NCBI GenBank assembly: GCA_964496415.1
Contig: CAZBZN010000005.1
Span: forward strand, 1-35,772
Reading direction: 5' to 3'
Origin: Candidatus Micrarchaeota archaeon
Lineage (GTDB): Archaea > B1Sed10-29 > JAJRYS01
Length of the DNA stretch: 35,772 bases
Part shown: positions 6,790 to 35,772 of the stretch, in pieces
Layout of the letters: the number at the start of each line of letters is the position of its first letter
Numbering within the stretch: the first letter of the stretch is position 1
Position numbers and translations under genes: made by a program
Notes under the pieces: generated by a model
Told to the model about the DNA's origin: nothing
The model's database searches: none
The model's input: only the letters and a program-made list of their open reading frames with translations

Positions 6790-6909
6790 GGGTCCGTGGT
6801 CCAGCGGTTAAGACGCCACCCTTACAAGGTGGAGATCCCCAGTTCGAAAAGGAAAGCTGCGCTAGAGCCAAACTATGCGCAGCTTTTCACGGAAGTCTGG
6901 GCGGACCCA
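6790..6909 (+). tRNA. tRNA-Val(TAC) with 47-nt intron in T-loop (59/60)
   Basis: Acceptor GGGTCCG/CGGACCC, anticodon arm CCACC-CT-TAC-AA-GGTGG, T-arm CCCAG-TTCGAA[6849-6895]T-CTGGG; BHB central helix TTCG/CGGA, 12-bp intron stem. Confidence 0.93.
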
Positions 6910-6923
6910 CTCTACATTCTAAT

Positions 6924-7085
6924 AGCCCCGTAGTCTAGTGGCCAAGGATGCTGGCCTTTGGAGCCAGCGACGGCGGTTCGAAAGAGGAGTTGTACCTCTC
7001 CTAACTCCTCAGGCAACATACGCTAATGCTTAATTGTCTAGTGCTGGGGCAAGTGCAACTCCTCATGAAAATCCGCCCGGGGCTA
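6924..7085 (+). tRNA. tRNA-Gln(TTG) with 89-nt intron in T-loop (59/60)
   Basis: Acceptor AGCCCCG/CGGGGCT (archaeal A1-U72), CTGGC-CT-TTG-GA-GCCAG, GGCGG-TTCGAA[6983-7071]T-CCGCC; central helix TTCG/TGAA, stem GAGGAGTTGTAC/GTGCAACTCCTC. Confidence 0.93.
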
Positions 7086-7106
7086 TTAATAGAAATGTTG
7101 GTTAAA

Positions 7107-30635: not shown

Positions 30636-32171
30636 TCACGACTGCAGCTTAAGCCTTCTTAACACGAATTCTTTGTCAAGAGAAGCGAGGAAAGGGCCAA
30701 GCCTTGGGCCACGGCTTTTGCCTAAGAAGAGCTGGTAAAACACCATGAAAGCAGTATTTAAAGGAATCTGCTTCTGTTTTGCAGTGTTGTAAACAAACTG
30801 CTGGATTTCATCTCCAGTAGCTCCTTTCTCAATGAAGTCAGCTGTTTCAAAAAGCAGTTCTTTGATTTCAGGGCCCCACTCACTTATCATTACGTCAGGA
30901 ATTTCTTCTTTCACAGTGAACTTGAACTGTTCAGGAGCGTACTTCTGAACCCAGTTCCAAGCAAGTTTTAACCTTAAGTCAGCATTCTCATAAGGGTGAT
31001 TTATCTTCTTAAGAATCTGCTTTGCTTTTTCAATATCACCTAATGCTATCTGAACCGCGTTCACGCACACTGAAAACTGCGGTAGTTCAACATAACCATG
31101 CTCACCTATTCTTGAAAAAAAGTACCTTCTCTTCTCGTTGTCATCAGCTTCAGCCTTGCCGTAGAACGCTTTCCTTGCCTCGTCAAAGTAGTTGTAAACA
31201 TTCAAAACGTCAGCGTCAAATCCTACTTCAAAAGCCCTGCTTATCTTCGTAGTATACAAGTATCTTACTACTTCTGGTTCGTATACTTCAAGCAAGTCGC
31301 TTATAGTGACAATGTTTCCTTTTGAAGAACTCATTTTCTCTTTCTGTCCTTTGAAGTAAACAAACTCGTACATTGGGCCTATTGGCGGCTCATGATTAAA
31401 CACTTCCTTACAGATTAACACTCCTGTATCCCATGATCCTCCTGAAGCCTTGTGGTCCTTGCCGCTGCTTTCAAAGTCAACGTCATAGAAAGCCCAACGC
31501 ATAGGCCAGTCAACTCTCCAAACAAGCTTCACTGCGCTAGGATTCTTTCTAAAATCAATGACGTTTTCATTACCGCACTCGCAAGAGTACTTTATTTCAT
31601 AACCTCCAAGATAAACAGCCTTGGTAGTGTCCTTCCCGCACTTCTCACAGTAAACCCTGACAGGAAGCCATCCTTCTTCTAAAGGCTCTGCCCTGAACCT
31701 GTCAAGGATGCTTTTGATTTTTCCAGTGTTCTCCAAGGCTTTTTTCACGTACTCAACAAAAGTTCCTTTGTTATATTCCTCTGAAGCAAAGAAGAAATCA
31801 ACTTCAACACCACATGCTTTCATTTCATTAACAACAGGCTCTTCAAAATGTTCAGCATAAGAAGAATGACATCCCCAAGGATCAGGAGTCTTGTTCACTG
31901 GCAGTCCAATGTACTGCTCCCATTCAGAAGAAACACCAGCAGGAACTTTCCTAAACCTGTCATAGTCATCCCAAAAATACTGGTACTTAGCTTTTACTCC
32001 TTTGTCAATTAATGCTTTGAAAACAAAATCCTGGGTTAGTATTTCGCGGAAGTTGCCAGCATGAACCACTCCTGAAGGAGTAATGCCACTCTCTACAACA
32101 TACTCTTCTTTCTCAGGCTTCCTCTTAACAATCTCATCAGCGTACTGGTCTGCCCAGTGTTTTGACTCCAT
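30636..32171 (-). CDS. lysS: Class I lysyl-tRNA synthetase
   Basis: SGITPSG.VHAGN, WRVDWPMRW, GKDH, KMSSSKG, GPRLG. Confidence 0.97.
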   Translation of the reverse strand: MESKHWADQYADEIVKRKPEKEEYVVESGITPSGVVHAGNFREILTQDFVFKALIDKGVKAKYQYFWDDYDRFRKVPAGVSSEWEQYIGLPVNKTPDPWGCHSSYAEHFEEPVVNEMKACGVEVDFFFASEEYNKGTFVEYVKKALENTGKIKSILDRFRAEPLEEGWLPVRVYCEKCGKDTTKAVYLGGYEIKYSCECGNENVIDFRKNPSAVKLVWRVDWPMRWAFYDVDFESSGKDHKASGGSWDTGVLICKEVFNHEPPIGPMYEFVYFKGQKEKMSSSKGNIVTISDLLEVYEPEVVRYLYTTKISRAFEVGFDADVLNVYNYFDEARKAFYGKAEADDNEKRRYFFSRIGEHGYVELPQFSVCVNAVQIALGDIEKAKQILKKINHPYENADLRLKLAWNWVQKYAPEQFKFTVKEEIPDVMISEWGPEIKELLFETADFIEKGATGDEIQQFVYNTAKQKQIPLNTAFMVFYQLFLGKSRGPRLGPFLASLDKEFVLRRLKLQS

Positions 32172-32193
32172 GCTTTCAATCTCCTTTCAAAAA

Positions 32194-32361
32194 CGGGCCC
32201 AGGGGGATTTTCTCCTGCAGGAGAAAAGCTCAGAGAGCTTAGCTCTCTGCAGATTTGAACCCCCGACACCCAGGTTAAGAGCCTGGTGCTCTAACCATTT
32301 CAGCTGCAAGAGCTGAAAGCTCAGGAGCGAAAAGCTCCTGCAGAGACTGAGCTATGGGCCC
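32194..32361 (-). tRNA. tRNA-Lys(CTT) with two introns: D-loop (32298-32344, 47 nt) and T-loop 59/60 (32208-32253, 46 nt)
   Basis: Spliced sequence GGGCCCATAGCTCAGTC^TGGTTAGAGCACCAGGCTCTTAACCTGGGTGTCGGGGGTTCAAA^TCCCCCTGGGCCCG folds as a complete cloverleaf. Confidence 0.92.
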
Positions 32362-32374
32362 GTGAACAGTTAAG

Positions 32375-33637
32375 TTATTTTTTTCCAATTACTTTTACTC
32401 CATTCATGTAAGGTATTAAAACTTCTGGAACTGTTATTGTTCCGTCCTCGTTCTGGTAGTTTTCAAGAATAGCAACTATAGCCCTGCTGGTTGCTAGTCC
32501 CGTAGCATTAAGCGTGTGAACGTATTCTTTTTCACCGCCACGTTTTCCGTATTTTATGTTAAGTCCTCTTGATTGGAAGTCAGTGCAGTTTGAAGTGCTT
32601 CCAACCTCAGCATATTTTCCTTGCCTTGGGAACCATGCTTCAATATCATACTGCCTGTAATTTTTTATTGACAAGTCCCCAGAGCATATCTCTACTGTCC
32701 TAAAAGGAATCCCTAACTTCTTATAAATTTCTTCAATGTTAGCATGCATTTCTTCAAAGTGTTTTTCAGAGTCCTCTGGCTTGCATATGATTATTTGTTC
32801 TACTTTGTTAAACTGATGCATTCTGAAAAGGCCTCTCGTGTCAACGCCATGAGCGCCGATTTCTTTCCTGAAAGCAGTACTAAGCCCAACCATTCTCACC
32901 GGCAGGTCTTCTTCTGGTATGACTTCATCAGCGTAAAGCGCTATCAGGGGATGCTCTGAAGTTGGTATAAGGTAAAGGTCTTCTTCCTCAATCTTATACA
33001 TTACTTTTTCAAAGTCATCCAAATCAATTATTCCTTCGTAAGCTTTTCTTCTAAGCATGTATGGTGGTAATACGAGCCTGTAGCCTTTGTTTATAAGAAA
33101 GTCTAACGCAAACCTCTGTAATGCAAGGTCAAGTAAAGCAAGCTCACTGAACAGGTAATTGAATCCTCTTCCAGCTACTTTTGCTGCTTTTTCAAAGTCC
33201 CCTAATCCAAGAGCTTCTATGAGCTCGCCGTGTGGTTTTAACTCAAAGCTTTTTTTAACTGGCTCGCCCCACCTTCTTATTTCAATGTTGTCTTTTTCAT
33301 CTTTTCCTTCAGGAACGTCTGGGTGAAGCATGTTCGGGCATTTCATCAAAAGTGAATTAACTTCTCTTTCCAAAGAGGCTGTTTCTTCTTCAAGGCGTTT
33401 TATTTCCTGCTTAAGCTGTTTCATTCTATTGATTTTATCCTCGTTCCTTTCATTTGCTAGTTCTTCACTTACCTTGTTTCTCTCATGTCTTAATTGCTGG
33501 AGTTCGTAAAGTTTTTTCCTCCATTCTTCATCTTTTTTTATTAACTCATCTAATGGGAAAGAAGAATGTCTTTTTTCCAGCATTTTTCTTACTTCTTCTG
33601 GATTCTCACGGATCAACTTTACATCAAACACTGCCAT
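32375..33637 (-). CDS. serS: Seryl-tRNA synthetase
   Basis: N-terminal coiled coil, YLIPTSEH, FRKEIG, RMHQFNKVEQ, HTLNAT; start moved to ATG 33637 because the track start is within tRNA-Asn. Confidence 0.97.
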   Translation of the reverse strand: MAVFDVKLIRENPEEVRKMLEKRHSSFPLDELIKKDEEWRKKLYELQQLRHERNKVSEELANERNEDKINRMKQLKQEIKRLEEETASLEREVNSLLMKCPNMLHPDVPEGKDEKDNIEIRRWGEPVKKSFELKPHGELIEALGLGDFEKAAKVAGRGFNYLFSELALLDLALQRFALDFLINKGYRLVLPPYMLRRKAYEGIIDLDDFEKVMYKIEEEDLYLIPTSEHPLIALYADEVIPEEDLPVRMVGLSTAFRKEIGAHGVDTRGLFRMHQFNKVEQIIICKPEDSEKHFEEMHANIEEIYKKLGIPFRTVEICSGDLSIKNYRQYDIEAWFPRQGKYAEVGSTSNCTDFQSRGLNIKYGKRGGEKEYVHTLNATGLATSRAIVAILENYQNEDGTITVPEVLIPYMNGVKVIGKK

Positions 33638-33920: not shown

Positions 33921-34044
33921 TGCGCCCGCCGGGAGTTTCAAACCGCATGCTTATTATGAAAAAACTGTTTTTTAAGGCATGCAGTTAATCGAACCCGGGC
34001 CTCGGCCGTGGCAGGGCCGTGTCATACCACTAGACTACGGGCGC
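33921..34044 (-). tRNA. tRNA-Gly(GCC) with 53-nt intron in T-loop (59/60; 33935-33987)
   Basis: GCGCCCG/CGGGCGC acceptor, CGGCC-CT-GCC-AC-GGCCG; strict BHB CCGGG-TTCG-AT^T-AACTGCATGC...GCATGCGGTT-TGAA-AC^T-CCCGG. Confidence 0.94.
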
Positions 34045-35543: not shown

Positions 35544-35650
35544 TGCGCCGGCCGGGATTTGAACCCGGGCCGTTGGCTTGGAAGGCCAAAGTCCTACCAT
35601 TCCAGGCATCCAGCCAGTGAGTGACTGGAAGCAGGCTAGACTACCGGCGC
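35544..35650 (-). tRNA. tRNA-Gly(TCC) with 34-nt D-loop intron (35600-35633)
   Basis: GCGCCGG/CCGGCGC acceptor, TTGGC-CT-TCC-AA-GCCAA; CTAG-CC^T-GC..TCCAGTCA/TGGCTGGA..GC-CTGG-AA^T. Confidence 0.92.
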
Positions 35651-35672
35651 AGTTAATTCTTGTTTTCCAGCA

Positions 35673-35772
35673 CGGGCCCGAGGGGATTTGAACCCCCGAC
35701 ACCCAGGTTAAAAGCCTGGTGCTCTGCCACTTCAGGAAACTTCCTTCTTAATTTTTAAAGAAAGGTTCTGAC
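35673..35772 (-). tRNA. tRNA-Lys(TTT), 5' end outside the window, with 40-nt D-loop intron (35730-35769)
   Basis: 3' exon TGGCAGAGCACCAGGCTTTTAACCTGGGTGTCGGGGGTTCAAATCCCCTCGGGCCCG; the intron ends CTGAAG and is preceded by GTC, as in tRNA-Lys(CTT). Confidence 0.85.

Follow-up and report, generated by a model that had tools for sequence, protein, structure and literature searches.

The tRNA-Lys(CTT) gene of a Candidatus Micrarchaeota archaeon (contig CAZBZN010000005.1 of assembly GCA_964496415.1) is interrupted by two introns, one in the D-loop and one in the T-loop, which are related to each other and to further introns in tRNA genes of the same lineage. The gene is located at positions 32194-32361 on the minus strand of the window, which is the whole stretch of 35,772 nt that was analysed. 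On the basis of sequence comparison and structure modelling, these are probably paralogous bulge-helix-bulge (BHB) introns of a lineage-restricted family, which has spread among tRNA genes and between two of their loops and whose members are also capable of folding into two local hairpins. An earlier reading made from the letters of the window alone (the sequence-only reading) had pointed to the two introns as twin elements that conserve such a two-hairpin fold.

With its two introns the gene measures 168 nt, and its layout on the minus strand is GGGCCCATAGCTCAGTC / 47-nt insert / TGGTTAGAGC...GGGGGTTCAAA / 46-nt insert / TCCCCCTGGGCCCG. The 5' exon (32345..32361) comprises tRNA positions 1-17 and is followed by the D-loop intron of 47 nt (32298..32344), which is inserted one base before G18G19. 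The middle exon (32254..32297) contains the 3' part of the D-loop, the anticodon arm with CTT, the variable loop, the 5' strand of the T-stem and the T-loop up to A59, after which the T-loop intron of 46 nt (32208..32253) is inserted at 59/60; the 3' exon (32194..32207) supplies U60, the 3' strands of the T-stem and of the acceptor stem, and the discriminator G. Joining the exons in silico by coordinate resulted in a canonical tRNA-Lys(ctt) cloverleaf of 75 nt according to ARAGORN; on the unspliced window, the same program did not call the tRNA-Lys(CTT) gene. The Rfam tRNA match over the locus (32241-32313, 31.4 bits) is misregistered, with intron bases being taken as acceptor stem. The gene illustrates how standard tRNA finders overlook genes in such genomes. 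A regular-expression scan for Lys anticodon arms in tRNA context found the sole CTT arm of the host assembly (G000; 687 kb in 41 contigs, 36% G+C, 91% complete) in this gene, the other Lys arm being one TTT arm at a contig end.

That the twin arrangement is an assembly artefact, with repeats joined chimerically, has a negligible probability. The T intron does form a two-copy repeat, and short contigs end at it. However, the locus is present in three hydrothermal-vent DNA metagenomes (no RNA run was found to contain it), as established on Logan contigs rather than raw reads: one contig, which comes from a separate study (X3, record 17), runs across both introns and matches 32200-32352 with 0 differences, and all 361 nt of 32100-32460 are tiled by contigs of two further runs (X1 and X2) with 0 other letters. 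These contigs contradict the local misassembly that the sequence-only reading had allowed for. Furthermore, a related genome, G002, carries family introns in both the D- and the T-loop of its tRNA-Arg(CCT), which means that the twin arrangement recurs.

Both intron sequences quoted in the sequence-only reading were found exactly as written (minus strand, 32344..32298 for the 47 nt and 32253..32208 for the 46 nt), and the plan it had proposed, consisting of TCTG, hairpin 1, AGC and hairpin 2, is seen in both. Global alignment of the D intron with the T intron gave a score of 19 with 36 of 49 columns identical, a score reached by none of 2000 shuffles (mean -7.8, standard deviation 3.6, maximum 6), and the twins are homologous, as had been claimed. 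Three unrelated T-loop introns of the same genome, included as a comparison, scored between -11 and -3. A nearest-neighbour test for the twins being most alike was weak by score (0.32 for the D versus the T intron of G000); the hairpin-1 stems of the G002 tRNA-Arg(CCT) twins are, by eye, one compensated pair apart.

The T intron is present a second time in the genome, identical at 46 of 46 positions and at the same T-loop site, in tRNA-Arg(CCT) (G000:C4:19683-19728), where the flanking exon sequence agrees with that of tRNA-Lys(CTT) at about 29 of 40 bases in the same BLAST alignment (87% over 86 nt). This tRNA-Arg(CCT) contains an additional D-arm intron, which is unrelated. When 40 related genomes were searched with the precursor, intron-bearing matches came from genomes of the same family and from a single genome of a different family within the order. 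With 13 seeds, the two-hairpin fold was turned into a covariance model (R1), which returned 21 matches at E <= 3.6e-6 over 18 genomes of the order (three in G000, one in G001, eight in G002, six in G004 and three in G011), and over 31 genomes of the class it had a match at E <= 0.001 in six. The family was compiled in an alignment (A3) of 22 rows, 20 of them distinct, from five related genomes, which includes one D-type copy added by inspection. All 22 copies, with lengths of 42-50 nt, are located inside tRNA genes, seven of them in the D-loop just before GG 18-19 and 15 in the T-loop after TTCRAW; their hosts, identified by eye from the anticodon loops, include tRNAs for Lys, Arg, Met, Phe, Val, Gly and Thr as well as long-arm tRNAs. 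Sequence and R1 searches of G000 found no stand-alone copy outside a tRNA. The search for further members that the sequence-only reading had proposed thus extended the pair to a family occupying two tRNA positions, and its suggestion that the element was copied between different loops is borne out by the identical T intron in tRNA-Arg(CCT) and by the occurrence of the family in both loops of relatives.

The distribution of the family shows considerable turnover. The T intron of tRNA-Met(CAT) is present in G001 and G004 and absent from G002, and the tRNA-Lys(CTT) of G003 has a plain one-hairpin intron of 32 nt at the corresponding D site and lacks a T intron (tRNA identities by eye in both cases); the tRNA-Lys(CTT) of G004 has other introns at both sites. 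Within single genomes, the 3' halves of the introns are identical among four copies (G004) or three copies (G002), with hairpin 1 varying. As judged from these sequence comparisons, the family has been spread or homogenised, both across tRNA genes and between the D-loop and the T-loop. Genome contigs were scanned with an IUPAC pattern for T-type copies, which matched 101 stretches, of which 80 were listed; among the matches listed, nearly all were bacterial chance matches, and the family was found only at two loci of one archaeal metagenome-assembled genome identical to G004. A stricter pattern over metagenome contigs gave two matches, one identical to G002 and the other a near-identical tRNA-Arg(CCT) copy. 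The T intron of this second match (L165, 1032-1086, minus strand) differs by a single C-to-T substitution, by which the apical pair of hairpin 1 changes from G-C to G.U and stays formed. In these wider scans of genome and metagenome contigs, from which records of the source genome or of near relatives were possibly excluded, the family was not found outside this lineage. A crude genome-wide regular expression for T-loop introns produced mostly noise, and only its matches with matching acceptor ends were used.

Two further observations were made on tRNA genes of these genomes. On the minus strand of contig C26 of G000, a tRNA with the T-arm GTGGG/CCCAC carries a one-hairpin intron of 28 nt at 59/60, AAAAGAGC-TGCAAAA-GCTCTTT-TGAAAA, whose stem recalls hairpin 1 of the family and which could be a simple ancestral form of the two-hairpin type. 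At two loci of G002 (L017 and L042), each with an intron-bearing tRNA (Val and Met by eye), the last ~15 bases of the tRNA are repeated ~100-150 nt further downstream; these repeated 3' ends look like attachment-site scars of integrated elements.

The splicing motif of archaeal tRNA introns consists of two 3-nt bulges on opposite strands, separated by a helix of 4 bp, and is cut after the second base of each bulge. A BHB layout is present in 22 of the 22 copies: exon bases -6..-3 pair with intron bases n-5..n-2, and NN/N bulges (the slash marks the splice site) are found at both splice sites, in agreement with the 3-4-3 hBHBh' layout described in PMC3239211. All four pairs of the central helix H are formed in 10 copies and three of the four in 12. 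The D-type central helices follow the exon (TCAG:CTGA, GCAG:CTGC, GCAC:GTGC and GCAT:GTGC), and those of the T-type copies are formed between exon TTCA and intron TGAA, AGAA or CGAA. The inner helix h' begins at intron base 2, with CUGCR facing YGCAG; in D-type copies it is 5-12 bp long and directly abuts the central helix, and in T-type copies one extra base on the 3' strand offsets it from H. The 5-bp core of h' is 92% paired, and two of its five pairs are changed on both sides (15 C-G vs three U-A; nine A-U vs four G-C).

In tRNA-Lys(CTT), the D intron has the bulges TC/T and AA/T and a complete H of 4 bp, formed by exon TCAG (32347-32350) and intron CTGA (32300-32303), which continues into an h' of 11 bp with one G.U pair (32333-32343 with 32304-32314); it has no outer helix and is therefore of the HBh' form. 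The T intron has the T-stem as its outer helix and twice the bulge AA/T; within exon TTCA (32256-32259), T54-T55-C56 pair with intron G-A-A to form an H of 3 bp, followed by an A57.A mismatch (intron 32210-32213), and h' consists of 6 bp between CTGCAG and CTGCAG with one extra G on the 3' strand. The BHB helices of the D intron (CTGCAGGAGCT/AGCTCTTGCAG together with exon TCAG and intron CTGA) and the A-A mismatch of the T intron had already been recognised in the sequence-only reading. Its label 'non-BHB' nevertheless misleads: the canonical BHB layout is shared by all 22 copies, and the helix between exon and intron tracks changes in the exon. As far as their sequences indicate, both introns are true BHB introns, and we infer that both are spliced.

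The genes for the required enzymes are encoded in the assembly. An EndA catalytic domain was found in one gene (PF01974, 113 bits, C18:3655-3912, in an open frame of 188 aa), and the ligase RtcB is encoded at C1:58132-59424 (PF01139, 576 bits); the assembly, which is 91% complete, yielded no reverse transcriptase. Other classes of intron were considered and rejected. An interpretation as box C/D small RNA introns was dismissed for lack of a C box, no RUGAUGA being present by eye in either intron, and at Rfam gathering thresholds only tRNA matches were obtained in the window. Self-splicing group I or group II introns were dismissed given the length of only 46-47 nt and the absence of an Rfam intron match at gathering thresholds.

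Each intron has, next to its BHB fold, a predicted second state consisting of two local hairpins. In the D intron, hairpin 1 is formed by 32334-32340 with 32322-32328 and hairpin 2 by 32311-32318 with 32298-32305; in the T intron, the corresponding segments are 32242-32249 with 32231-32238 and 32220-32227 with 32208-32215. As had been stated in the sequence-only reading, this predicted fold ties up the 3' strand of the splice helix, and it and the BHB fold exclude each other. Over alignment A3, 88.4% of the cells of the two-hairpin fold are paired compared with 70.5% in shuffles, 10 of the 15 pairs show two-sided changes (62 cells), and the covariation score of 0.507 was reached by none of 500 shuffles; sliding the partners by 1-3 columns lowered the pairing to 22-61% and the scores to 0.026-0.123. 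The compensatory changes noticed between the twins are therefore borne out over 20 distinct members. In hairpin 1, seven of the eight pairs are changed on both sides, and the stems of different copies are wholly different words (CAGAGAGC, GGTGAAA, CGTTGAAA, CAACGAAC and CAAGAAAC); the linker GAGCUUU and the 5' UCUGC are conserved. Hairpin 2 pairs the exon-binding tail with a U-rich segment that follows the GAGC linker and that resembles the exon (TTTCAGC vs exon TCAG). Where the tail has been retargeted, the 5' arm of hairpin 2 follows it, as in CCACC/GGTGC (exon GCAC) and CTGCACC/GGTGCAG (exon GCAT). In a decayed D-type copy (G004 C36), hairpin 2 was kept and hairpin 1 lost. A combination of both states, in which hairpin 1 is kept inside the BHB fold as a three-way junction, was predicted to cost between 0 and 12.1 kcal/mol; it was retained only for the T-type copies of G011 (cost 0), is marginal for the D intron of tRNA-Lys(CTT) (+2.4), and was rejected elsewhere (+3.5 to +12.1 kcal/mol, with +8.0 for the T intron of this gene).

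The predicted energies of the two states are close to each other. The minimum free energy (MFE) structure of the 168-nt precursor at 37 C (-82.1 kcal/mol) has the D intron in its BHB fold and the T intron in a near-BHB fold. When both BHBs were forced, the predicted energy of the precursor was -80.4 kcal/mol at 37 C and -28.4 kcal/mol at 75 C, and when both introns were forced into two hairpins it was -77.3 and -28.6 kcal/mol, respectively, the two states being approximately equal at 75 C. The sequence-only reading had considered the BHB fold as the weaker one, which does not hold overall, given that the BHB-type folds occupy the precursor MFE and the two-hairpin state lies above it at 37 C. 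In the ensemble predicted for 37 C, the tail of the D intron spends ~25% on the exon and ~50% in hairpin 2. The covariation of the two-hairpin fold, taken together with a precursor MFE of the BHB type, leads to the prediction that the elements are bistable. For the introns alone, the two-domain fold is the linear MFE in eight of the 22 copies, including the D intron of this gene (-20.3), and it is within 1.6 kcal/mol of the MFE in 12 of the 22, including the T intron, for which a rod of -22.0 competes with two hairpins of -20.4. As circles, 16 of the 22 copies have the two-hairpin dumbbell as predicted MFE; both introns of this gene belong to them (-19.0 and -18.9), in line with the dumbbells that the sequence-only reading had expected of the circularised introns.

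The predicted energies were compared with a structure-preserving null, in which the rod fold of each intron was kept and its pairs and loops were permuted. The two-domain energy was below the null mean in 19 of the 20 distinct introns and reached z <= -2 in eight of the 20, both introns of this gene included: z was -6.1 for the D intron (0 of 150 permutations as low) and -2.8 for the T intron (1 of 150). These results suggest that in many copies, and clearly in this gene, the rod alone does not account for the alternative state.

The simplest rival to this reading is that only ordinary BHB introns are present, and that the two-hairpin fold has no function, being a by-product of words that are palindromic (CTGCAG, AGCT, GAGCTC) and of a tandem duplication, within the intron, whose unit is the 3' strand of h'. 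We regard this as possible although not favoured. The BHB-type MFE of the precursor and the preference of the isolated T intron for the rod would agree with it, as would the observation that the proximal and distal partners of the 5' arm resemble tandem copies. On the other hand, the hairpin-1 stems differ wholly between copies and yet stay paired, which a one-off duplication would not maintain; the null test gave energies below the mean in nearly all distinct introns; and hairpin 2 survives in the decayed copy that lacks hairpin 1.

Several points weigh against the reading of paralogous BHB introns with a second, two-hairpin state, some of them in favour of the by-product. In three of the 22 copies, which are essentially without the two-hairpin state and keep the BHB, the rod is favoured over it by at least 7 kcal/mol, and 12 of the 20 distinct introns are within 2 standard deviations of the structure-preserving null; the claim that the two-hairpin fold is conserved thus stands as far as its covariation across the family is concerned, and fails as far as universality is concerned. 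Alignment A3 was itself fitted by the model to the two-hairpin structure, which inflates the pairing, with D-type hairpin 2 being one column out of register, and its copies are kin, forming subfamilies within genomes, so that the shuffle statistics treat them as more independent than they are. For the three-way covariation of exon, tail and mimic, the sequences offer essentially one subfamily event, and the mimic failed to follow the tail in one copy (G011 C1:9338). The energies were calculated with standard parameters for 37-75 C, and the true growth temperature may differ. As for splicing, the BHB of the T intron is by its sequence a relaxed one, with 3 bp and an A.A mismatch in H and an extra G, and the sole EndA found resembles the single-unit enzymes, which are classically regarded as strict. 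Single-unit (alpha4) EndAs with an extra loop have been described in DPANN archaea having disrupted tRNAs (Kaneta 2018, PMC5829648). A Micrarchaeota EndA cleaves 59/60 introns in vitro (PMC3239211); that enzyme is of the three-unit epsilon2 type, in contrast to the single catalytic-domain gene with its 188-aa frame found here.

Weighing these points, we lean moderately towards the view that the two-hairpin state is under selection, as the modelled folds and their covariation would suggest. The way in which such an intron could work can be outlined from its fixed plan, which consists of 5' UCUGC, a hypervariable hairpin 1, the linker GAGCUUU(U)C and a 3' tail ending in (CU)GAAA(A). The tail would pair with four exon bases, the last of them separated by two bases from the 5' splice site (a TCAG-type D arm or the TTCA of the T-loop), and the 5' CUGC(R) would pair with (Y)GCAG immediately 5' of the tail; the two pairings would jointly create the 3-nt bulge, 4-bp helix and 3-nt bulge that form an EndA substrate. 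EndA would cut in the BHB state, and RtcB would join the exons and probably circularise the intron. As the family spread, the tail would have been retargeted to the local exon sequence. In the alternative state, the internal U-rich exon mimic would capture the tail, and the 5' arm would take its proximal partner. During transcription the two local hairpins may form first, leaving the D-stem and the T-stem free to fold; as regards the D-stem, the reason is that its bases 12-13 take part in the D-type central helix. Once the intron has been cut out, these hairpins could capture the tail and the 5' arm in a closed dumbbell, by which exon pairing would be ended. We therefore put forward, tentatively and with some doubt, that the two-hairpin state serves as the self-contained ground state of the nascent or of the excised intron, the latter as a circular dumbbell. 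If this role were true, the intron would be kept from disturbing the folding of the tRNA body, and its excision would be effectively irreversible.

The manner in which the family spread can be compared with the transposition of introns in Thermoproteales, which was reported in 2010 as relayed in the review PMC4090602. With the T intron identical over 46 of 46 positions in tRNA-Lys(CTT) and tRNA-Arg(CCT), 36 of 49 columns shared between the D and T introns, and 22 copies in five genomes, the present introns make up a transposed or duplicated intron family, and on sequence grounds the Lys(CTT)/Arg(CCT) pattern matches the transposition described for Thermoproteales. In both cases near-identical introns occupy different isoacceptor tRNAs and different positions, and the BHB requirement sets the permissible sites. 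Unlike the Thermoproteales introns as relayed in that review, those described here belong to a DPANN vent lineage and form one compact two-loop family with a retargeted exon-pairing tail and a covarying second fold.

An alternative for the origin of the copies is a palindromic mobile module acting at the DNA level, similar to the hairpin cassettes of REP (repetitive extragenic palindromic) or MITE (miniature inverted-repeat transposable element) type, that inserts in or beside tRNA genes; the hairpins would then act on the DNA, through a recombinase or replication slippage, and the surviving copies in tRNA genes would be the spliceable ones. This we consider rather unlikely. Identical copies do occur in different genes, hairpin 1 is hypervariable and looks modular, and the 3' halves are identical among the four copies in G004 and the three in G002. 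In addition, multi-hairpin arrays were found in G011 just past tRNA 3' ends, on the opposite strand and outside exons (L054, 164-217; L055, 160-212; L056, 166-219), whose first module, TCTGCAAGGAAC-GAA-GTTCCTTGAGA, resembles hairpin 1 of the family and may be REP-like; it is these arrays outside tRNA genes that keep a DNA-level origin alive. The gain of archaeal introns is supposed to occur at the DNA level in the review cited above (PMC4090602). However, 22 of the 22 strong copies are in tRNAs, at exactly two BHB-compatible sites, all oriented alike and with tails that are complementary to the exon at hand, and no stand-alone copy was found in G000. Miniature palindromic elements of the IS200/IS605 type insert 3' of a fixed tetra- or pentanucleotide and depend on a TnpA gene acting in trans; the flanks of the D-type insertions (TCAGTC, TCAGCC, GCAGAG, GCACAG and GCATAG) have no common or fixed word, and the T-type copies always follow TTCRAW, which is itself universal to the T-loop. 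No transposase was linked to the family, no search aimed at transposases having been made.

A bolder proposal, which we judge to be unlikely and somewhat more so than a DNA-level module, is that the family represents a minimal noncoding mobile RNA element whose two-state design is adapted to spread. The tail (CUGA for TCAG; UGAA or AGAA for UUCA) would pick the site, and the mimic would close a nuclease-resistant circular dumbbell that serves as transfer intermediate or persistent form; insertion would be performed by the host EndA and RtcB on a BHB formed in trans, or be fixed later as DNA. The sequence-only reading had likewise raised a minimal mobile intron, or else a splicing switch, as what the element may be.

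Circles of archaeal tRNA introns are well established. Cleavage at the BHB followed by RtcB ligation would here give a circle of 46-47 nt, predicted to be a dumbbell, which is similar to the circular tRNA introns (tricRNAs) that exist as stable molecules in animals (PMC4536317). This invites the reading that the intron has a function of its own after excision, as a small circular RNA acting for instance as a guide, a decoy or a protein-binding dumbbell, and that the tRNA is a mere expression host. The frequency of the dumbbell among the predicted circular MFE structures and the conservation of the linker GAGCUUU and of the 5' UCUGC would be in line with it. We consider this very unlikely: the window has no signal of box C/D or another RNA family, its Rfam matches at gathering thresholds being tRNA only; the conserved bases are all accounted for by the BHB (5' CUGC and tail) or by tail capture; and the stem sequences are not conserved, unlike what a guide would require.

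Competition between alternative pairings is known from self-splicing introns, where P(-1) and P1 of the Tetrahymena intron compete for the 5' exon and thereby control splicing. The likeness to the twin introns is that a splice-site helix is opposed by a local hairpin sequestering one of its strands; the Tetrahymena intron is a ribozyme with its competing hairpin in the exon, whereas cutting here would depend on a protein enzyme and the decoy lies inside the intron. Among BHB introns, the nearest system is that of PMC3239211, which likewise concerns an ultrasmall archaeon with the 59/60 site, several introns per tRNA, BHB and relaxed BHB motifs, and splicing by EndA and a ligase. The 59/60 intron of ARMAN-2 described there has 13 nt and a relaxed hBH motif, compared with 46 nt here, and unlike the present case the accessible part of that paper describes no conserved intron family, no paralogy between D-loop and T-loop introns and no alternative fold. 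Non-canonical BHB introns, multiple introns per tRNA, the 59/60 site and transposed intron families are thus already known. In the literature searched, with Fujishima 2010 and supplements lying outside it, there was no compact DPANN family confined to the D- and T-loop, no retargeting of the tail and no covarying alternative fold with an internal exon mimic; searches of titles and abstracts found no bistable or alternative-fold BHB intron, which is not proof of absence. For the study of how archaeal tRNA introns are gained and move, this family is an unusually tractable subject, being short, with ~20 natural variants, two sites only, a retargeted tail and two exclusive folds with compensatory change. 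It forms a small natural system in which to ask whether intron structure beyond the BHB affects splicing, tRNA folding, circle stability and spread.

Interrupted tRNA genes are frequent in the remainder of the window. The T-loop-interrupted tRNAs number four, namely Lys(CTT), Gly(GCC), Val(TAC) and Gln(TTG). The tRNA-Gly(GCC) gene (33921-34044, minus strand) is seemingly truncated after TTCGAT and yet contains a T-loop intron of 53 nt (~33935-33987) of an unrelated sequence family, which ends in ...TGAAAC/T and is followed by the 3' strands of the T-stem and acceptor stem; Rfam detects its 5' part only. On the plus strand, a tRNA that is Val(TAC) by eye (6790-6912) has a 59/60 intron of 47 nt, and a neighbouring tRNA that is Gln(TTG) by eye (6924-7090) has one of 89 nt, both of other sequence families; a near-copy of the latter is present on contig C26. 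In addition, the tRNA-Gly(TCC) gene (35545-35651, minus strand) contains a D-loop intron of ~29 nt, and the tRNA-Lys(TTT) gene (35680-35772, minus strand), which is cut by the contig end, has a D-loop intron of unrelated sequence at the same D site as tRNA-Lys(CTT), ending in CCTGAAG/TGG.

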